The translations under genes and the position numbers were made by a program. A model generated the notes under the pieces. That model saw only the letters and a program-made list of their open reading frames with translations. It did no database searches and was not told where the DNA came from. This document shows positions 1-55,140 of a stretch of 55,140 nt of DNA, piece after piece. The stretch's first letter is position 1; the number at the start of each line of letters is the position of its first letter. This stretch comes from a virus (taxonomy: Duplodnaviria > Caudoviricetes): IMG/VR virus record IMGVR_UViG_3300032281_000128, positions 1-55,140 of that record; one strand, 5' to 3'.

Positions 1-123
1 TGACTACGCGTACGACCCGGCTGACATGTACGGAGAAGATACGGGTGGGACGCTGATGTCAAGCACTGACAAAATAGCACAGCTCGCTACAGATTTAGGT
101 TACGACGCTGTGCGTATGCGGAA
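1..123 (+). repeat. Terminal direct repeat (copy 1), identical to 55018-55140; circular assembly overlap
   Basis: TGACTACGCG...GTATGCGGAA occurs at both ends; an ORF reads through the join in frame. Confidence 0.95.
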
Positions 124-799
124 CATTATAGATTACGGACCGGGAGCTGATGAAGCTGGTCGGTCACGTGTGGCTGACACTTACGCAGCGTTTGACCCTA
201 GTATTGTTATACCGATGGTCGGGCGGATGAACGAGCGTAAGACGAACCTTGATCGCTTCCTCAAAGAAAGCATCATGAAAGATGAAGCTGGTGACCCGGT
301 CGTTTTGTTCCACGGGACAAGCGATGACGTCACGGGTAACTTTAACCTTCACCATCCCAACCGGAAAGACCAAGGATGGTTGGGTCGCGGTGCTTATGTT
401 ACTGATGCGCCTGAATTGGCGAGCATGTATTCCAGTATGAAGGCGGGTAAAGCTGGCGCTAACGTCATGCCTCTCTACGGAGACATCCGCAATCCTTACA
501 ACATGACGCTTGAGGAAAAGAACAAGTTGCGCTTCTTGTCCCAAGGTGACATTGATGATTTCACATCCAAGCTGCGTGACGCCGGACATGACTCCGCAAT
601 TGTAACCTACCCAGACGGTGTGCGTGAGATTGCGGTGTTCAACCCAGAGCGCCAACTCAAATCAGCCTCGGGCAATAGGGGAACCTATGACCCCGACAAC
701 CCAGATTTGAAATTCGCTCAAGGGGGCTTGGTTTCCACATACGATGAGGCTATAGTTAACGATCTAGCCGACAAAATTCGCGAGGGTATTTATGGATGA
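2..799 (+). CDS. C-terminal part of the junction-spanning protein (starts at 53822): end of ART domain 1 plus a second ADP-ribosyltransferase (ART-PolyVal-like) domain
   Basis: Motifs VLFHGT...LGRGAYVT...NVMPLY...GHDSAIV...REIAVFNPERQLKSASGNRGTYDP, and GYDAVRMRNIIDYG...DTYAAFDP; in frame with ATG 53822 across the overlap. Confidence 0.75.
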   Translation, partial: DYAYDPADMYGEDTGGTLMSSTDKIAQLATDLGYDAVRMRNIIDYGPGADEAGRSRVADTYAAFDPSIVIPMVGRMNERKTNLDRFLKESIMKDEAGDPVVLFHGTSDDVTGNFNLHHPNRKDQGWLGRGAYVTDAPELASMYSSMKAGKAGANVMPLYGDIRNPYNMTLEEKNKLRFLSQGDIDDFTSKLRDAGHDSAIVTYPDGVREIAVFNPERQLKSASGNRGTYDPDNPDLKFAQGGLVSTYDEAIVNDLADKIREGIYG

Positions 800-3284
800 G
801 CAGCAACTCGAAGACGATTTACCAGAAGGTGAAAGCGTCGAGCTAGAGGATTCGGCTAATGAAGTCGAAGACACTGAAGATGGTGGCGCTATCATTCGCA
901 TGGAGAATGAAGAAGATGAAAAAGAACACCTTGCGCACTTTGCCAACATAGTTGACGAAGTAGACCAAAGTGAACTAGACGTCGCCGTTAATGACCTGCT
1001 TGACAAGATTGACAAAGACAAAGAAGCTCGTGAGAAGCGTGACAAGCAATACGAGGAAGGTCTGCGTCGCACCGGCTTAGGTGACGATGCGCCGGGCGGT
1101 GCTCAGTTCACCGGGGCTAACAAGGTCGTTCACCCGATGTTGGTGGAAGCCTGTGTTGACTTCTCTGCTCGCTTCATGAAGGAAGTCTTCCCACCTAACG
1201 GCCCAGTCAAGAGTAAGATCAACGGACAGCTGGACAAGCAGAAGGTTATGAAGGCGCAGCGTAAGGCTGACTTCATGAATTGGCAGCTCACCCAGCAGAT
1301 ACCTGAGTTCCGCTCGGAGCTTGAGCAGTTGAGCACCCAGCTCCCGCTCGGTGGTGGTCAATACCTCAAGTTCTTCTGGAACCCACAGTATCGTCGTCCG
1401 ACTTGCGAGTTCATCGCTATTGACGACGTTTACCTGCCGTTCGCTGCGACTAACTTCTATACTTCCGAGCGCAAGACGCACGTTCAGTACATCACTGAAA
1501 TGGAATACCGTAAACGTGTTAAGTCCGGTATGTACCGTGACGTAGACGTAGGTATGCCTGAAGATCCTGACTTCAGCAAGTCCAGCCAAGCTAACGACAA
1601 GATTGAAGGTCGTAAAGACACCAGCTACAACGAAGACGGTCTACGTACTATCTTTGAGATCTACACGTTCCTTGACTTTGGTGACGGCACCGAGCCATAC
1701 ATCCTCAGCATTGACAAGTCGTCAGGTCTTGCCCTGTCGCTTTACCGCAACTGGGACGTAGAAGACGACCTACGGCGTGAGCTTGATTGGATTGTTGAGT
1801 TCCCGTTTGTGCCTTGGCGTGGGGCTTACCCCATCGGCCTGACGCACATGATTGGTGGATTGAGTGGGGCCGCAACCGGCGCACTCCGTGCCTTGCTAGA
1901 CTCCGCCCACATTCAGAACATCCCGACGCTGCTCAAGCTCAAGGGTGGACCGGGCGGTCAAACAATCAACCTACAACCAACTGAGGTCGTTGAATTGGAA
2001 GGCGGGGCGTTGGTAGACGACGTGCGTAAGCTCGCGATGCCACTCCCGTTCAACGGCCCCAGCCCGACGCTCTTCCAGTTGCTTGGCTTCTTGGTGGACG
2101 CGGGTAAAGGGGTTGTGCAGACGTCGTTTGAAAAGCTGTCTGATGCAAATCCGAACCAACCCGTTGGTACCACGATGGCCCTTATCGAACAGGGGATGGT
2201 CGTATTCAGCAGCATACACTCACGTCTGCACAACTCAATGGACAAGTGCTTCAAGATCCTTCACCGGATCAACTCGGCGTATTTGACCGAGGAAGATATT
2301 GAAGCGCACGAATCTGGTGTTGACATCAATCCGGAAGATTTTGACGGACCTATGGACGTCATCCCGGTAAGTGACCCAGCTATCTTCAGTGAGACGCAGC
2401 GGTTCGCTCAGATACAAGCGATTATGCAACGAGCGGCTCAGATGCCGCAGTTGTATGATCCGCGTAAGGTGGAGGAAATGTTCCTCCGCGCTATGAAGGT
2501 GCCTGACGATGAAGTCTTGCAACCTGCCCCGGCGAGCGAAGACATGGATCCCGTCAGTGAGAACGTTGCAGCGGCTATGGGTCGACCTGTTTACGTTCTA
2601 CCTCAGCAAGATCACCTCGCCCACTTGAAGACGCACCTTGCGTTTCTCAGCTCGCCGTTGTTCGGTTCCAATCCGGCAATCACCAAGAGCTACTTGTACC
2701 CGATTGCTCAGCACTTGCGTGACCACCTGCTCAACTACTATCTGGTAGAAGCGCATAACGCAGTTGACGAAGCGCAGCGTGAAAAGCTGATTCCAGACGA
2801 AGCGTCAGATCAAGTCAACGTCATCCTGCAGGTTCAGCAACTGATTGAACAGCAGCTGGGTGGCTTTGCTGAACAGCTCGCTCAGATCACTGAGATGGCT
2901 CAGCAGTTTGCACCACAACCACCTATGCCGCCAGACAACAGCATGCAGATTGCTCAGCTTAATGCAGAGCTGCAAGGTCAAGTGCTACAACAACGCGCCC
3001 AGACCGATCAGGCTCGTATTGAGCTTGACCAGCAGAAGATGGCTACCGACTTGCAGCTTGAACAGCAGAAGATGTCCATCCAACAGCAGAAGGATATGTC
3101 TCAGCTACAGAACGAACAGTTCAAGCAACAGGCTGAGAACGAGCGCACTATTGCAGAGATTACGGCACGTGAGCGCATGAACACTGCTGACAACGAAACC
3201 GCTATGCTCCTAGCAGCGGCTGAGATGTCAACTGGTGAAAAGGTGGCGGTCAGCACCGGCACTGGTATTAACCCTAATCCTTAA
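792..3284 (+). CDS. Portal protein (podovirus type)
   Basis: 830 aa just downstream of the terminase region; HPMLVEAC, ADFMNWQLT and YPIGLTHMIG motifs; Q-rich C-terminal coiled coil. Confidence 0.85.
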   Translation: MDEQQLEDDLPEGESVELEDSANEVEDTEDGGAIIRMENEEDEKEHLAHFANIVDEVDQSELDVAVNDLLDKIDKDKEAREKRDKQYEEGLRRTGLGDDAPGGAQFTGANKVVHPMLVEACVDFSARFMKEVFPPNGPVKSKINGQLDKQKVMKAQRKADFMNWQLTQQIPEFRSELEQLSTQLPLGGGQYLKFFWNPQYRRPTCEFIAIDDVYLPFAATNFYTSERKTHVQYITEMEYRKRVKSGMYRDVDVGMPEDPDFSKSSQANDKIEGRKDTSYNEDGLRTIFEIYTFLDFGDGTEPYILSIDKSSGLALSLYRNWDVEDDLRRELDWIVEFPFVPWRGAYPIGLTHMIGGLSGAATGALRALLDSAHIQNIPTLLKLKGGPGGQTINLQPTEVVELEGGALVDDVRKLAMPLPFNGPSPTLFQLLGFLVDAGKGVVQTSFEKLSDANPNQPVGTTMALIEQGMVVFSSIHSRLHNSMDKCFKILHRINSAYLTEEDIEAHESGVDINPEDFDGPMDVIPVSDPAIFSETQRFAQIQAIMQRAAQMPQLYDPRKVEEMFLRAMKVPDDEVLQPAPASEDMDPVSENVAAAMGRPVYVLPQQDHLAHLKTHLAFLSSPLFGSNPAITKSYLYPIAQHLRDHLLNYYLVEAHNAVDEAQREKLIPDEASDQVNVILQVQQLIEQQLGGFAEQLAQITEMAQQFAPQPPMPPDNSMQIAQLNAELQGQVLQQRAQTDQARIELDQQKMATDLQLEQQKMSIQQQKDMSQLQNEQFKQQAENERTIAEITARERMNTADNETAMLLAAAEMSTGEKVAVSTGTGINPNP

Positions 3285-3438: not shown

Positions 3439-3632
3439 ATTTAGAAACCAGACTTCTGAACGCTCTCAAGGATGAACAGCAGCAGTTCGCTCTGCAAGCC
3501 TTGAAGCGTCCAGTTGAGCGCGATGCCTTTGAGTACGGGTATCGCGTTGGGACCATCGCTGGCTTAGAGTCGGCGATAAATGTACTCTTAAAACTTGTAG
3601 ACGAGGAGAAGCACGTTGACAACGATCTCTGA
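3435..3632 (+). CDS. Small head-region hypothetical protein
   Basis: Coupled ORF between portal and GroES; YGYRVGTIAGL motif. Confidence 0.7.
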   Translation: MNLETRLLNALKDEQQQFALQALKRPVERDAFEYGYRVGTIAGLESAINVLLKLVDEEKHVDNDL

Positions 3633-4023
3633 GGACGCATTGGCGGAGGCTTTCCCGGTTGTAGAACCGGAATATCGGCCTTACGGTAGCCGTGTCCTGG
3701 TACAGATCCGTACCCCAATCACTAAGACTAAGGGTGGTATCATCCTTACTTCTGACACCGTAGACACTGAAAAGTGGAATACTCAAGTGGCTAAGGTCAT
3801 TAGCTTGGGTCCGGTGGCATATAAGAACCGTAACACTCTTGAGCCATGGCCCGAAGGTTCGTGGTGTGAACCCGGCACATTCGTCCGCGTACCTAAGTAT
3901 GGTGGCGACCGTTGGGAAGTCACCGACAGCAACGGCAATACGGCAATGTTTGTAGTGTTCAACGATCTTGATATCGGCGGAGAGCATATGGGCAATCCAC
4001 TAAATGTTAAGGCATTCATCTGA
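3616..4023 (+). CDS. groES: GroES/Cpn10-like co-chaperonin
   Basis: PYGSRVLV...KTKGGIIL...AKVISLGP...VRVPKYGG pattern; GAGGAG SD before TTG. Confidence 0.85.
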   Translation: MTTISEDALAEAFPVVEPEYRPYGSRVLVQIRTPITKTKGGIILTSDTVDTEKWNTQVAKVISLGPVAYKNRNTLEPWPEGSWCEPGTFVRVPKYGGDRWEVTDSNGNTAMFVVFNDLDIGGEHMGNPLNVKAFI

Positions 4024-6232: not shown

Positions 6233-7147
6233 ATGGCTACCCCAATGCGTAGTACTGACTTTCGGTCAGTAGTCGAGCCTATCCTCAACGAAGTCTTTGA
6301 CGGTGTTTACGAACAGCGTGCTGACGAGTGGAATATGGTTTTCCGTGAACAAAAGGGCATTCCCCGTAACTACCACGAAGAACCCGTCTTGTACGGTTTC
6401 GGCGCGGCTCCGGAACTCCCCGATGGTATGGCTGTTAGCTATCAGTCGGGTGGTGTGCTCTTCCTGCAGCGTTACCTCTACAAAGTCTATGGTCTGGCAT
6501 TCAGCCTTACCAAAGTTCTTGTTGAAGATGGTGACCACATTCGTATCGGTCAGACCTATGCTAAGCACTTGGCTCAGTCGCTTATCGAAACGAAAGAAAC
6601 GCTGTCGGCAAACGTGCTTAACCGCGCTTTCAACGCTGCATACAGCGGCGGTGACGGTGTTGCTCTTATCAGCACGGCTCACCCAATCGTTAACGGCACG
6701 TTCAGCAACCAGCTGACGACTCCTGCGAACCTTTCGCAGACGTCACTTGAGCAGTTGTTGATCCAAATCCGTAACGCGGTAGACAACAACGGCAAGCGTA
6801 TCCGCCTCACGCCGACTCAGATCGTTACCGGTCCGTCGAACGTGTTCCAAGCTGAAACTCTGCTCAAGTCTGTTCTGCGTAGCGGTACTGCTGACAACGA
6901 CATCAACCCTGTCAAATCGATGGGTCTGTTGGCTAAGGGTCAAGCTAACCTTTCGCGTATCACGTCGTCCACTGCTTGGTGGATTCAGACTGATGCTCCA
7001 GAAGGTCTCAAGCTGCTTATGCGTCGTGGTCTTGAAAAGAGCATGGAAGGTGACTTCGAAACCGACTCCATGCGCTACAAGGCAACCGAGCGTTACACTG
7101 TGGGTTGGACTGACCCACGTGGCCTCTACGGTACGGCTGGCGTATAA
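6233..7147 (+). CDS. Major capsid protein
   Basis: 304 aa; strong AAGGAGG SD; GDGVALISTAHP and DFETDSMRYKATERYTVGWTDPRG motifs; followed by a terminator. Confidence 0.85.
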   Translation: MATPMRSTDFRSVVEPILNEVFDGVYEQRADEWNMVFREQKGIPRNYHEEPVLYGFGAAPELPDGMAVSYQSGGVLFLQRYLYKVYGLAFSLTKVLVEDGDHIRIGQTYAKHLAQSLIETKETLSANVLNRAFNAAYSGGDGVALISTAHPIVNGTFSNQLTTPANLSQTSLEQLLIQIRNAVDNNGKRIRLTPTQIVTGPSNVFQAETLLKSVLRSGTADNDINPVKSMGLLAKGQANLSRITSSTAWWIQTDAPEGLKLLMRRGLEKSMEGDFETDSMRYKATERYTVGWTDPRGLYGTAGV

Positions 7148-50482: not shown

Positions 50483-50510
50483 TTGCCTTTTACGGGTGAA
50501 AGGGTATAAT
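50483..50510 (+). promoter_or_regulatory. Sigma70-like promoter TTGCCT-N16-TATAAT for terS
   Basis: Directly upstream of terS. Confidence 0.55.
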
Positions 50511-50517
50511 GGAGATT

Positions 50518-51108
50518 ATGGGTAACTTAATTCAGAAGCCGAAAGCCAGACCAGCGGTTCGTAAATACGATCGTGATGTTGTGTCTGAGCATATTATAAC
50601 TGAGCTGACCAAGGGTCGCTCTTTGGCGAACATCTGTTCTGTTGATGAAGGTATGCCGAACGAGGCAACCTTTCTTGAGTGGGTCGAGAATGATGACCCT
50701 GCCGGGCTGGCCAAGCGTTACGCGCATGCGCGCGAACTTGGTTACAAGCTGATGGCTGATGAGATTGTTGAGCTAAGCAACAAGAAGGGGGAATGGGTTC
50801 CCGTTCAGGATTTGGACTTGGACGGTCGTCCCCTGCTCGATGCCGACGGCTTGCCGATCCTCAAGCAAGTGTTCATGCCGCTCAACAGCGACGTCATCGC
50901 TCACACTCGATTGCAGATTGACACGCGTAAGTGGCTGCTCAGCAAGATGCTGCCTAAGGTATACGGTGACAAGGTTCAACAGGAACACACCGGAAAGGAT
51001 GGCGGTCCTATTCAGATGGCAGCAGTCAATTTCAAAAACCTCAGCGATGAGGAGCTGGATAAAATGCAACAGCTGTTAAGCAAAGCGGAGGGTAATAACG
51101 GAAACTGA
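50518..51108 (+). CDS. terS: Terminase small subunit (start 50509 or 50518)
   Basis: GRSLANIC...MP...TFLEW...RYAHAR...MADEI...RLQIDTRKWLLSKMLPKVYGDK...HTGKDGGPI. Confidence 0.85.
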   Translation: MGNLIQKPKARPAVRKYDRDVVSEHIITELTKGRSLANICSVDEGMPNEATFLEWVENDDPAGLAKRYAHARELGYKLMADEIVELSNKKGEWVPVQDLDLDGRPLLDADGLPILKQVFMPLNSDVIAHTRLQIDTRKWLLSKMLPKVYGDKVQQEHTGKDGGPIQMAAVNFKNLSDEELDKMQQLLSKAEGNNGN

Positions 51109-51349: not shown

Positions 51350-51525
51350 ACCCGTGCATTCCACTAGGGGAGTCCCATATTGTTCCCCGTGACGACTTGA
51401 AGCGACACACCCCTAGCAAAGATTGTTGGTGTCGCCCCGAGCAGGACGATGAGTATTTGGGTCTCTGGGTTCATCGTTCTGCTGATGGTCGTGAGTCTTA
51501 TGAATTCGGTAGGAAGATGCATTGA
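51346..51525 (+). CDS. Small His/Cys protein (59 aa)
   Basis: HIVPRDD...H...CWCRP...VHRSADGRE; overlaps both neighbours. Confidence 0.55.
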   Translation: MNPCIPLGESHIVPRDDLKRHTPSKDCWCRPEQDDEYLGLWVHRSADGRESYEFGRKMH

Positions 51526-53090
51526 ACGACATGTCCCCAGCCTTGATGCTTGACATGATCAAGCGTGAGCGAGACCGGCGCAGTGCGTCTGCCTCGCTTT
51601 ACGAGTTTGTCAAGCAGAGCTGGGGCGTAGTTGAGCCGGGTGTGCCGTTCGTTGGCTCATGGCATATTGAGACGATCTGTGAGCACCTTGAAGCGGTGTC
51701 TGCTGGTGAAGTACAGCGACTGCTGATCAACATACCTCCTCGCCATTCCAAGTCGACCATCGTCAGTGTGATGTGGCCGATGTGGGAATGGCTCACCGAC
51801 CCTGCCCAGAAGTTCCTGTGCTCGTCTTACTCCGGCAACCTGAGTATCCGTGATAACCTCAAGGCTCGACGCCTCGTGCAGTCGCCTTGGTATCAGGAGC
51901 GATGGGGGCACATGTTCAAGCTGGCTGGTGACCAGAACGCTAAGCAGCGATTTGAGAATGACCAGACTGGCTACCGCATCGCTACGTCAGTCGGCGGGAC
52001 AGCGACGGGTGAAGGTGGTTCACGCCTGATACTTGACGACCCGCACGGAGCACAGGCAGCGCAGTCCGACACCATCCGTGAGTCTGATCTTGAGTGGTTT
52101 GACGTCGTGTGGTCAACCCGATTGAACAACCCGAAGACTGATGCGATGGTCACGGTCATGCAGCGTCTGCACGAGCGGGACATCAGCGGACACATCCTTG
52201 AGGACATTGGCGGCTGGGAGCACATCAAGATCCCGGCTGAGTGGGATGGTGTCAAGCGCACCACCGTGCTCGGCAACTACGACCCGCGAACCCGTGAGGG
52301 AGAGCTGATCTGCCCAGACCGCTTTGGCGCAGAGGAAATCACCCGGCTCAAGCAACTACTGGGCACGTATGGTGCGTCTGGTCAGCTACAGCAAGACCCG
52401 ACTCCGGTTGAGGGTGGTATCCTCAAGACCAAGTTCTTCCAGTTGTGGCCTCATGACAAGGCACTACCTCAGTTTGAGTACATACTGCAGAGCTATGACT
52501 GCGCCTTCACTGAGAAGACGACGGGTGACCCCACTGCCTGCACGGTGTGGGCCATCTTCAGTTATGACAACCAGCGCAACGTAATGTTGATTGACGCATG
52601 GGATGAGCACCTGAGCTACCCCGACCTGCGCAGTCGGGCAATAACCGACTGGCAAACTGAATACGGAGGCACCAGCGTAAAGGACGGATTACGTCGCGCT
52701 CGTAGGCCTGACCGTGTGCTCGTGGAAGCAAAAGCAAGCGGACAATCCCTAATACAAGATTTGCGCTTGGCGAAAGTGCCTGTTGTGAGCTATAACCCCG
52801 GTATGGCCGACAAGGTGAGTCGTGCGCACCAAGCTGCACCAACACTGGAACTCGGTCTGTTGTGGGTACCGGAAAGTGGTAAGAATAAGGGGCATCCTGT
52901 CAGTTGGGCTAGCAGCTTCATGAAGCAAGTTGGTAAGTTCCCAGTAGCTGAGCATGATGACTATGTGGATACGATGACACAAGCTGTTATATACTTCAAG
53001 AATGATGGCTGGTTTGAGTTACCCACTGCCCGTGATATTGACGAGCCACGACAACGTGACAAGGAGCGGATTAATCCGTACGCAGTATGA
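51522..53090 (+). CDS. terL: Terminase large subunit
   Basis: LLINIPPRHSKS, ILDDPH, MQRLHERD, QSYDCAF, VEAKASG and HDDYVD motifs. Confidence 0.95.
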   Translation: MNDMSPALMLDMIKRERDRRSASASLYEFVKQSWGVVEPGVPFVGSWHIETICEHLEAVSAGEVQRLLINIPPRHSKSTIVSVMWPMWEWLTDPAQKFLCSSYSGNLSIRDNLKARRLVQSPWYQERWGHMFKLAGDQNAKQRFENDQTGYRIATSVGGTATGEGGSRLILDDPHGAQAAQSDTIRESDLEWFDVVWSTRLNNPKTDAMVTVMQRLHERDISGHILEDIGGWEHIKIPAEWDGVKRTTVLGNYDPRTREGELICPDRFGAEEITRLKQLLGTYGASGQLQQDPTPVEGGILKTKFFQLWPHDKALPQFEYILQSYDCAFTEKTTGDPTACTVWAIFSYDNQRNVMLIDAWDEHLSYPDLRSRAITDWQTEYGGTSVKDGLRRARRPDRVLVEAKASGQSLIQDLRLAKVPVVSYNPGMADKVSRAHQAAPTLELGLLWVPESGKNKGHPVSWASSFMKQVGKFPVAEHDDYVDTMTQAVIYFKNDGWFELPTARDIDEPRQRDKERINPYAV

Positions 53091-53659
53091 ATTATCAGCA
53101 CCATTATAACCTGTTGATTGAACGCGCTCGCAACCGCACTCTTTCCGGTGTTTACTTGGAAAAACACCACGTGGTGCCTTCTTGTTTGGGTGGGTCTGAC
53201 GAAGACGACAACCTCGTTAACCTTCTACCTGAAGAACATTTTCTAGCCCACCAATTGTTGATTAAAATCAATCCTAAAGAATCTAAACTTTATTACGCCG
53301 CTCTAATGATGACGGTTGGTACCGATCGCGTTTGTAGAAATAACAAAGCGTACTCTTGGATACGCCGTAGAGTTTCAGAAGATCGAAAGGTGCGGCAGAC
53401 AGGTTTGAAGCATAGTGAAATCTCTAAGCAGTTGCGCTCGGATAAATTGAAAGGTAAGCCTCTTTCTGATTCTACGAAACAGAAGCTTAAAGACGCTTGG
53501 GTGCGGCGTAGGTCTGAAAAACCAATGACCGAAGAGACGAAACAAAAACTCAGAATGGTTTCTACCGGAAAAACACATAGCGTTGAAACTAAGATGAAGT
53601 TATCAGAATACAGGAAAATGAACCCTGTCAAACGAAAGGTCCACATCAATGCCGTCTAA
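53087..53659 (+). CDS. HNH homing endonuclease with NUMOD3-like repeats
   Basis: EKHHVVP..LGGSD...NLV.L..EEHFLAH; KHSEISK, PLSDSTKQKL, THSVETKMKLS. Confidence 0.85.
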   Translation: MNYQHHYNLLIERARNRTLSGVYLEKHHVVPSCLGGSDEDDNLVNLLPEEHFLAHQLLIKINPKESKLYYAALMMTVGTDRVCRNNKAYSWIRRRVSEDRKVRQTGLKHSEISKQLRSDKLKGKPLSDSTKQKLKDAWVRRRSEKPMTEETKQKLRMVSTGKTHSVETKMKLSEYRKMNPVKRKVHINAV

Positions 53660-53825
53660 GAAACCAGCAAAGCCCGTTTGGGACAAAGCCAGACCCAAGA
53701 GCGCCGGTAAGCCGAAAGAGCTGACCAGCAGCCAGAAGGCGAGCGCCAAGAGCGCAGCCAAAGCAGCGGGTCGTCCTTACCCCAACCTTGTTGACAACAT
53801 GCGAGCCGCACGGAAAAAGAAATGA
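53649..53825 (+). CDS. Small basic protein (58 aa, MPSKKPAKPVWDK...)
   Basis: AKAAGRPYPNLVDNMRAA; ATGA overlap with the 53822 start. Confidence 0.6.
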   Translation: MPSKKPAKPVWDKARPKSAGKPKELTSSQKASAKSAAKAAGRPYPNLVDNMRAARKKK

Positions 53826-55140
53826 GCAACCGCGTAGACAAAGACAGCCTACAGCTTGACAAGCCTCGGCGCACACCGGGCCACCCCACCAAGTCTCACA
53901 TCGTGAAGACGAAGGTAGACGGTAAGGAGCGTATTATCCGCTTTGGTGAGCAGGGAGCTAGCACAGCGGGTAAGCCCAAGGTGGGTGAGAGCGAACGCAT
54001 GACCAAGAAGCGAGCGAGCTTCAAGGCGCGACACGCAAAGAACATTGCCAAGGGTAAGTCTAGCCCTGCGTATTGGGCTGACAAGGTCAAGTGGAACACC
54101 GGCGGGTCAGTTGAGCTGAAGAACATGCTCGACGATTACGAGTCCATTGATGACGTCACCCACCTCGTACAGAAATTCAAGAATGGTGGTCAGCCCAAGA
54201 AGGCCAAAGAGCCGAGCTTACTGGATTACCTTGAGAGCGCCGCTAACACGGTCACGTCTCTGCCCGACTTACCTAGCACTATCTACCAAGCTGGTAAACG
54301 TGCGGTACAATCCATTCCCGCTAACGTGCGCTCAGGTGTTAACTACATTCAACGCAGCACCCCGCAGCAAGTGATGCGAGATGCTCAGCAGACCGCTGGT
54401 GAGATCAAGGGTGGGTTGAACCGCATCGTCCGCCATGTTAAAGAGAACCCGGTGGAGACTATCATTGATGTAATCCCGGTAGTAGGTGATATCAAAGCCT
54501 ATGGCGAAGACGTTGGCCGCGCTGCTCGTTTGCGGGCACAAGGTGATGAGCGAGGCGCAGCGAACATTGAACAGTACGCGTTACCGCTCGCTGTAGCTTC
54601 AATCATTCCCGGCGTAGGTGAAGCGCGTAAGGCGGGTAAGGTGGCTAACTTAGTTGATGCGGCTGATGACTTGTCTGACGTTAAGCAGCTCACCCGTAAG
54701 CTGATCACCAAGCCAGAGCGTGGTCCAGTGTTACCCGGCCCCGGTGAGACTGACATCCTGTATCGTGGTGCTGCTCCGAGCGAAGGTAGGCCGCAATTTA
54801 TACCTGAGCGTCAACGTCGCGGTGTTACTTGGTTCAGTAACGACCCCAGAGTCGCTTCTGAATATGCGCACACCACCAACTACGACCCTGAGCTAGATGG
54901 TCCGACCGTAACCCCTGTTCGGTTGAAAACTAACTCTATGATGGACGTAGACGCTCAAGGTAACACTTACGCCGCTATTCCCCTGCCAGATGAATATTAC
55001 GACACCCGTGACGTTGATGACTACGCGTACGACCCGGCTGACATGTACGGAGAAGATACGGGTGGGACGCTGATGTCAAGCACTGACAAAATAGCACAGC
55101 TCGCTACAGATTTAGGTTACGACGCTGTGCGTATGCGGAA
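53822..55140 (+). CDS. N-terminal part of a ~664-aa junction-spanning protein: basic N-domain, PT-TG-like linker and first ADP-ribosyltransferase domain (continues to 799)
   Basis: Manually translated with no stop; RFGEQG...FKARH...SPAYWADKVKW; IIDVIPVVGDIK...IIPGVG; LYRG...TWFSNDPRVASEYA...VTPVRL. Confidence 0.75.
   Translation, partial: MSNRVDKDSLQLDKPRRTPGHPTKSHIVKTKVDGKERIIRFGEQGASTAGKPKVGESERMTKKRASFKARHAKNIAKGKSSPAYWADKVKWNTGGSVELKNMLDDYESIDDVTHLVQKFKNGGQPKKAKEPSLLDYLESAANTVTSLPDLPSTIYQAGKRAVQSIPANVRSGVNYIQRSTPQQVMRDAQQTAGEIKGGLNRIVRHVKENPVETIIDVIPVVGDIKAYGEDVGRAARLRAQGDERGAANIEQYALPLAVASIIPGVGEARKAGKVANLVDAADDLSDVKQLTRKLITKPERGPVLPGPGETDILYRGAAPSEGRPQFIPERQRRGVTWFSNDPRVASEYAHTTNYDPELDGPTVTPVRLKTNSMMDVDAQGNTYAAIPLPDEYYDTRDVDDYAYDPADMYGEDTGGTLMSSTDKIAQLATDLGYDAVRMR
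55018..55140 (+). repeat. Terminal direct repeat (copy 2)
   Basis: Identical to 1-123. Confidence 0.95.

Follow-up and report, generated by a model that had tools for sequence, protein, structure and literature searches.

What protein lies between the large terminase gene (terL) and the portal gene of this phage, and where does it act? The DNA is IMG/VR virus record IMGVR_UViG_3300032281_000128 (Duplodnaviria; Caudoviricetes), 55,140 nucleotides long, which was analysed whole and is called the window here. Its terL and portal genes sit at opposite ends, and the gene between them, gene X, is cut in two by the ends of the assembly. It encodes a protein with a basic N-terminal domain (ND), two domains of ADP-ribosyltransferase (ART) type, ART1 and ART2, and a conserved C-terminal tail peptide. 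We favour the view that X is an intact late gene for a small effector of the polyvalent type. Such a protein would be synthesised late, loaded into the head and ejected into the host, where ART2 would carry out ADP-ribosylation with ART1 as its adaptor; this seems to us the probable course of events.

The two halves of X were joined through the terminal repeat. The open reading frame (ORF) beginning at the ATG at 53822 stays open through the window end (439 amino acids), and frame 2..799, already open at the window start, encodes 265 amino acids, of which 40 are common to the 439-residue ORF. Window bases 1-123 and 55018-55140 form an exact direct terminal repeat of 123 bp. With one copy taken out, the circle measures 55,017 bp and has a single ORF of 664 amino acids that stops at 797-799. 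The window is the whole IMG/VR record, which is classed as direct terminal repeats, 100% complete. A database protein, P0001 (664 amino acids), present on two contigs of up to 55,072 bp, is identical to the joined product at every residue, and an uninterrupted single gene lies between terL and portal in three related loci. As P0001 is contiguous elsewhere and equals the joined product, the join is settled. The junction is real, and X is confirmed to span both ends of the assembled genome, as a first-pass annotation made from the letters alone had proposed for a hidden ORF of about 664 residues. Every motif quoted in that annotation (LYRG, WFS, GYDAV, FHGT, GAYVT and REIAVF) is present in X. 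Because the gene is cut at the contig ends, automatic annotation misses it, and the same trap awaits any circularly assembled phage. The parts of X are listed below, with domain and key-residue coordinates verified on the DNA.

53822..55140, plus strand: 5' part of X (residues 1-439 plus 2 nt), running off the window end
1..799, plus strand: 3' part of X (frame 2..799), stop at 797-799
55018..55140: 123-bp exact terminal repeat, a copy of 1-123; the circular join falls inside ART1
53822..54097, plus strand: basic ND, residues 1-92, phrog_7595, isoelectric point (pI) 10.6, 24 lysines plus arginines in 92 residues
54098..54196, plus strand: post-ND 'GG' unit, residues 93-125, resembling the C-terminal tail motif
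54197..54676, plus strand: conserved helical region, residues 126-285, most conserved at 54467-54634, with IPVVGDIK...PGVGEAR motifs
54677..54751, plus strand: linker 'D.KQLTR+L...', residues 286-310, duplicated around an inserted module in the relative P0182
54752..55140, plus strand: first part of ART1, residues 311-439, with R315 at 54764-54766, W337 at 54830-54832 and S339 at 54836-54838
124..220, plus strand: remainder of ART1, to residue 472, with D443 at 131-133, D458 at 176-178 and T459 at 179-181
230..712, plus strand: ART2, residues 476-636, Pfam ART-PolyVal core at 281-685, with H503 at 311-313, Y531 at 395-397 and E608 at 626-628
713..796, plus strand: conserved C-terminal tail peptide, residues 637-664, with the portal GAGG site in its last codons

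The ND is the basic domain of about 90 residues that had first been described. The region after it had been likened to the pre-toxin domain PT-TG, a likeness that the searches do not bear out: PF14449 gave no Pfam match at E ≤ 10 on residues 201-307, on residues 94-307 or across the genome, and the control search was positive in five of 14 control genomes. Membrane helices in the IPVVGD/IPGVGE region are unsupported, with a maximum Kyte-Doolittle 19-residue mean of 1.08. DUF5754 (PF19058), which an Atlas cluster with a score of 0.85 suggested for the ND through 20% of its members, gave no match at E ≤ 10 and was rejected.

Of the two domains, ART2 is the canonical one. Against the Pfam family ART-PolyVal (PF18760), which has a curated cut-off of 31.2 bits, it scores 67 bits in window 2-799 and 66.3 bits at 281-685 in a six-frame search of the genome, which showed no further ART-PolyVal domain; the whole of P0001 reaches 80.8 bits with two stretches counted. 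The account of the family in PMC5512222 places the active site at a histidine in strand 1, a tyrosine in strand 2 and an acidic residue in strand 5. H503, Y531 and E608 align to these positions and are invariant in all 13 class-A proteins of the X family. Judged by its profile match, ART2 is a bona fide ART-PolyVal domain with the H-Y-E pattern that had been noticed at the outset. That the three residues are invariant while the adjoining domain drifts points to catalysis.

The adjoining domain, ART1, appears to evolve about five times faster than ART2. Compared with four more distant class-A proteins, P0001 is 47-48% identical in ART1 and 89-91% identical in ART2. Alone, ART1 scores 21 bits against PF18760 (E 5.9e-4), under the cut-off, and 17.8 bits in the genome search. 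We also used a family-independent profile, for which 104 proteins outside the X family supplied 338 ART-PolyVal domains, to search 32 proteins, and its E-values are relative to that small set. The profile matches ART1 in 11 of 11 class-A members with 21.5-34.7 bits (residues 325-468 of P0001); class-B cassettes, which are described below, score ≤0 with it. Profile-profile comparison links ART1 to ART2 weakly (probability 38%, 65 columns), and ART1 alone finds many weak matches on multi-repeat ART-PolyVal giants. A word-based search of longer proteins for ART1-type relatives returned the same family only (12 of 12). On these matches ART1 is a divergent ART-PolyVal paralogue.

Is ART1 a second enzyme? 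Aligned with ART-PolyVal it fails the H-Y-acidic active-site pattern. At the H/Y/E positions it has R315, W337 and T459, with S339 two residues past W337 and D458 beside T459, all of them invariant in the 13 class-A proteins. ADP-ribosyltransferases of the R-S-E type (Alt/VIP2) are marked by an arginine in the first strand, an S-T-S motif and, ahead of strand 5, E-x-E. By alignment this pattern is not matched in ART1 either: Y-R-G is present and S339 occurs as F-S-N/S, with A-D-T and no E-x-E. The first reading of this region as an upstream ART with an R...S pattern keeps its core, a second ART-type domain with R315 and S339. Its GYDAV, taken then as part of the pattern, is the conserved 'GyDG' helix-strand motif of ART-PolyVal and is not catalytic, and the domain alone falls short of the Pfam threshold. 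ART1 is more likely to be a target-binding or adaptor pseudo-enzyme than a second transferase. Given the sub-threshold score and the R/W/T set of residues, the idea of two active ARTs hitting two kinds of substrate is not established.

Binary-toxin enzymes of the VIP2 and iota Ia type, which belong to the R-S-E clade, carry tandem ART folds of which the N-terminal one is a degenerate adaptor and the C-terminal one is active. The arrangement proposed for X, an ART1 adaptor ahead of an active ART2, would resemble theirs. X differs in ART clade and delivery route, and an ART1-type domain is the sole ART-like module of one relative, P0018.

Predicted folds agree with the domain assignments. AlphaFold2 (AF2) run on P0001 with 13 close relatives gave a mean predicted local distance difference test score (pLDDT) of 32.7, too low for use. 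As ART1 is not contiguous in the window, we used P0032, a 441-residue database fragment, 92% identical, that runs from the linker through ART1 and ART2 to the tail; the alignment had 28 rows. The mean pLDDT of this model is 62.8, with 60-91 in the ART2 blocks and 70-83 in the ART1 core elements, and both domains have the same strand and helix order, beta-beta-alpha-beta. The best Foldseek rows in the PDB (2.4e-3 to 1e-2) are PARP5A/tankyrase, PARP1, exotoxin A, MbcT and RES toxins. VIA-align ranks first a chain of the cyanophage A4 pre-ejectosome, 9k3a_B (Z 8.7, root-mean-square deviation 2.9 Å over 118 residues, model residues 259-400, which correspond to ART2), followed by PARP and tankyrase (Z 7.0-7.5). 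In BFVD, a set of predicted viral structures, there are 83 matches at E ≤ 0.001, the best at 9.8e-18. Most are named ART-PolyVal or polyvalent; an N4-type virion RNA polymerase and a protease-MuF fusion are among the matches. Examined by this model and these structure comparisons, the domains do not lack an ART fold. A sequence search of the PDB gave nothing relevant for P0001 (best E 0.13, YopM repeats) and nothing at E ≤ 1 for the A3 profile.

The match to A4 suggests a different role, in which X is mainly a structural protein of the ejection apparatus or internal core and its ART folds are building blocks or DNA-binding surfaces. The matched protein, A4 gp27, contacts packaged DNA according to PMC12002296, and the ND of X is very basic, with a partner ORF that is basic too. 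Such a role seems improbable to us. The invariance of H503, Y531 and E608 in 13 of 13 proteins beside a drifting domain argues for catalysis, and a cassette for which unrelated modules of differing size are freely substituted is hard to square with a fixed structural role. A4 gp27 (PDB 9K3A), as reported in PMC12002296, resembles X in having an ART-like fold, solved inside a phage head, and it is the best match of ART2. It differs in its length of 1717 amino acids and in having no Pfam ART match, and identity over the structural match is 14%. A 'YHGT...YFS' echo lies at its residues 1424-1462. In Anabaena phage A-4L the gp27 gene is at L092 20116-25269 (minus strand), and the protein forms the outer layer of the in-capsid pre-ejectosome. 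The main text of PMC12002296 never mentions ADP-ribosylation; judging from the model, gp27 may carry an unrecognised ART-like domain inside the capsid.

To which class of proteins, then, does X belong? In the account of Iyer et al. 2017 (PMC5512222), ARTs are the commonest protein-modifying domains of phage polyvalent proteins, occurring in one or several copies, and packaging is predicted. Several features described there recur in X: more than one effector-type domain in one polypeptide (at least two are expected, and X has its two ART-type domains), copies of ART-PolyVal, and a gene among the head genes for portal and terminase, which in X is joined to its neighbours by overlapping start and stop codons. 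Among relatives of X, ART occurs in combination with SLT, CHAP, lysozyme, PBECR5 and PcfJ. Everything tested fits a place for X among the phage polyvalent proteins (ART-PolyVal, Tox-ART-HYD2 clade). Compared with the polyvalent proteins described in PMC5512222, X is small (664 amino acids), has constant end-pieces, occupies a fixed slot in which cassettes are replaced, and has one ART re-tooled to R/W/T. The effector class is known, and what appears to be new in X is the end-piece and cassette organisation and the re-tooled ART1. T4 Alt, which enters with the DNA and modifies host proteins (PMC5512222), is the model for ART2. It is, however, an R-S-E enzyme of another ART clade, is loaded by the T4 head-targeting system and has no sequence relation to X.

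The first-pass annotation had called X polymorphic-toxin-like. In its form X does fit: like the MuF toxins as described in PMC5576092, it has a conserved, head-associated front and swappable modules of toxic type, and its gene lies beside the portal gene in the DNA-packaging module. A toxin in the MuF sense would be an antibacterial weapon or a modulator of lysogeny from which an immunity protein protects. We think this highly improbable for X. No MuF domain, PT-TG or tyrosine integrase was found in the genome, and Phage_Mu_F (PF04233) has no match at E ≤ 1 there and none in the Pfam scans of P0001. The gene directly downstream of X is the portal gene, whose start lies 8 nt inside X, which leaves no immunity gene at that place, as was noted early on; the same holds in all 19 related loci with a downstream ORF. 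X also lies before the portal gene and not after it, its variable part is internal with a conserved tail following, and temperate signs are missing, while MuF toxins are reported in PMC5576092 only from temperate phages. Phage polyvalent protein is the better label.

Relatives of the window show how the internal part changes. In the L005/L006 contig terL and portal are 92-93% identical in DNA, the HNH gene that lies near X in the window is missing, and X has 726 residues. It has residues 1-281 and the last 28 or so in common with the window's X; the roughly 420 residues between are unrelated and belong to no Pfam family. The cassette breakpoints in the window's X are at 54662/54663 on the left and 714/715 on the right. 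L007 has the same synteny and an X of 541 residues with a single ART-PolyVal domain. Close relatives with 90-93% identical flanks bear unrelated cassettes at the same place. Domain swapping, which the first-pass annotation suggested looking for in the C-terminal region, is real as an exchange of cassettes between close relatives; the exchanged part is internal, with a conserved tail after it.

The 37 family proteins comprise an ART group of 16, 17 of class B, one of class C and three truncated fragments. Within the ART group some forms have a single ART, and two longer ones carry an additional module. In one of these, P0182 (777 residues), about 110 extra residues lie between duplicated 'D.KQLTR+L' linkers, and the linker and tail peptides look like seams where modules get added. 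The class-A protein P0183 (775 residues) has an insert of about 80 residues between two copies of the tail peptide. The P0182 insert had a ParB-like look; no such Pfam match was found at E ≤ 0.05 and the candidate was dropped. Class-C protein P0018 has only the ART1-like domain. The class-B cassette (419-438 residues) matches no Pfam family; the one exception is Arr-ms, which scores weakly and under the threshold on P0026 (E 0.044). PHROGs recognised only the N-domain of these proteins, NCBIfam nothing, and Atlas scores were ≤0.82. At E ≤ 0.1 NCBIfam gave nothing on six of seven family or ND proteins and one far sub-threshold RelB/DinJ line on P0018. In the related-locus search with single proteins, the 5' part of X found one locus and the 3' part none.

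The ND reaches well beyond the family. An exhaustive search of representatives with the whole of P0001 returned 3853 proteins at E ≤ 0.001, and in the best 150 the ND is fused to proteins of 109-1732 amino acids. A pattern scan of IMG/VR confirmed the ND on at least 590 stretches, and phrog_7595 is very widespread. In 85 of 88 proteins a 'W..GG.V' pattern follows it. Between terL and portal, proteins of 363-1993 amino acids run from ND to tail in one phage lineage. The downstream ORF is a portal gene 70-80% identical to that of the window in 19 of 19 cases (16 of the 35 loci have no downstream ORF within the fetched DNA), and the upstream ORF is terL at 77-84% identity in 27 of 30. Because the neighbours are consistently related portal and terL genes, this is one lineage with one hypervariable slot.

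The tail motif goes with an N-terminal ND. It lies in the last 70 residues of 32 of 35 family proteins, the three exceptions being truncated, and in 27 of 35 other proteins of at least 200 residues with an N-terminal ND. It is rare where the ND is internal (2 of 14) and in ART-PolyVal proteins without an ND (3 of 91), and close to absent from shuffled ends (~0). Our census of IMG/VR loci covered the best 80, with 70 ND ORFs closed at the 3' end: 26 small (<200 residues), 35 large with an N-terminal ND (363-1993) and nine with an internal ND. The tail is present in 31 of the 35 large N-terminal-ND ORFs and in none of the nine internal-ND ORFs. The large proteins hold 63 motif units: 48 among the final 80 residues, where they often stand as tandem pairs, three just after the ND and 12 internal. 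Usually the tail peptide comes singly or as two copies in tandem, and it invariably adjoins the portal gene; in the window's genome no further copy occurs in six frames outside X.

Between these end-pieces the cargo varies widely. A Pfam scan of 52 ND or family proteins left 23 without any family and identified SLT in 10, CHAP in three, Phage_lysozyme2 in two, PBECR5 in one, PcfJ in four, DUF6973 in two and ART-PolyVal in 12 (six at or over the cut-off). The gene can also be split. At L067 2375-6691 the ND is a separate 91-residue gene ending after '...KVKW', a 1345-residue cargo-tail ORF with an ART-PolyVal-like part starts 4 nt after it, and the portal gene follows. Among the 26 small-ND loci, 15 have a following ORF of at least 150 residues; nine of those are closed, and four end in the tail motif. 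A non-exhaustive literature search found no earlier description of the end-pieces or the slot, which the supplementary files of PMC5512222 and PMC12002296 may name.

By analogy with known packaged proteins, X is probably carried in the virus particle. Three observations suggest delivery from the virion at entry: peptidoglycan hydrolases occur in many slot variants, the position of the gene is fixed and translationally coupled to the portal gene, and the end-pieces are constant around freely changing cargo. We propose that X would be made late, together with the head proteins, and taken up into the procapsid, with the C-terminal peptide, and perhaps the ND, as constant 'address' parts for loading. 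X would then be ejected with the DNA into the host, where ART2, using NAD+, would modify one or more host targets by ADP-ribosylation early in infection, as T4 Alt does, and ART1 would act as a rapidly evolving binding or adaptor domain. A complex prediction of the portal protein (830 residues, 19-row alignment) with the last 50 residues of X scored 0.00 in both runs, which weighs neither way on binding.

A more ambitious form of this proposal is possible, although we hold it only tentatively. The tail, 'A.GG.V...YD..VD.I', would be a portable tag for loading and ejection that works with the basic ND, the slot a plug-and-play platform for cargo, and ART1 a target picker for ART2 driven by an arms race. 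Encapsulin cargo-loading peptides offer an analogy for a tail peptide as a loading tag.

The packaged effector has to be weighed against an enzyme that never enters the particle. X could be made late and act in the cytoplasm of the already infected cell, ADP-ribosylating proteins of host or phage, or nucleic acid, as T4 ModA/ModB do; its position would then be a matter of operon history. Several observations tell against packaging, and four of them are what this alternative draws on. Packaging is inferred from gene position, architecture and analogy. The ND is a separate gene in some members, split from its cargo, and it also occurs alone in unrelated phages, away from the portal gene. As split forms and stand-alone NDs exist, the ND is not required in cis for the cargo. 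The last codons of the tail contain the portal GAGG and start codon, and conservation of the tail may be partly at the nucleotide level. Other points weigh on the proposal more widely. Among cultured phages the closest relatives are Caulobacter phage RW and others, with a portal 51.7% identical, and they have no such gene between terL and portal; the full protein from ND to tail was found in none of the cultured phages in a collection of 50,697 records. The AF2 model of P0032 is only moderate in its mean pLDDT, Foldseek found no PDB match at E ≤ 0.001, and VIA-align Z scores of 7-8.7 are middling by the tool's own note. In sequence, the likeness to A4 gp27 amounts to an echo of only 4.4 bits, with no Pfam match. 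The invariant R315, S339, D443 and D458 would leave room for ART1 as a re-tooled enzyme.

Even so, the purely cytoplasmic enzyme seems unlikely. SLT, CHAP and lysozyme cargo suits entry into a cell from the virion and not a life in the cytoplasm, and ART-PolyVal is typical of proteins for which PMC5512222 predicts packaging. The upstream copies of the tail are conserved at the protein level beyond the portal signals, with 48 of the 63 units in the last 80 residues. We therefore keep to a packaged and ejected effector as the probable role of X.

The genes around X run in the order terS, terL, HNH/NUMOD3, a 58-residue basic ORF, X, portal, a GroES-like gene and a capsid protein, and are located as follows.

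50509-51108: terS
51522..53090, plus strand: large terminase subunit (terL)
53087..53659, plus strand: HNH/NUMOD3 homing endonuclease, 190 residues, phrog_655, between terL and the small basic ORF
53649..53825, plus strand: small basic ORF, 58 residues, pI 11.0, phrog_34011, its stop overlapping the ATG of X
792..3284, plus strand: portal gene, 830 residues, its start overlapping the stop of X by 8 nt
3616-4023: GroES-like co-chaperonin gene, phrog_3188, directly after the portal gene
6233-7147: capsid protein

All four junctions from terL to portal overlap, and the GAGG ribosome-binding site of the portal gene lies inside the last codons of X. The HNH/NUMOD3 gene looks like a recent homing insertion, as the otherwise collinear L006 and L007 are without it. 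Of 34 large-X loci, 28 have a homologue of the small basic ORF immediately before the ND gene, as do 11 of 26 small-ND loci, and the two basic proteins are a conserved pair. The first 100 residues of the portal protein are very acidic (37 aspartates plus glutamates, 11 lysines plus arginines) and its C-terminal 130 or so are glutamine-rich; the acidic end could pair with the basic ND of X. The GroES-like gene is kept in L007 and annotated in Caulobacter phage RW. In that phage (L091 2445-5247) terL is annotated in two pieces with an S-adenosylmethionine (SAM)-dependent methyltransferase gene between them, and a tRNA-Val stands at the position that X has in the window's lineage.

A widespread lineage of aquatic phages thus keeps one slot beside its portal gene for host-attacking enzymes, which are exchanged as cassettes while the pieces at either end stay constant. 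Should those end-pieces act as loading signals, they would account for the entry of such diverse cargo into the head, and in laboratory systems they could serve to load proteins of choice into phage particles. The H-Y-E domain of X, beside its fast-diverging R-type paralogue, offers a testable case of how phage ADP-ribosyltransferases may gain or change target specificity.

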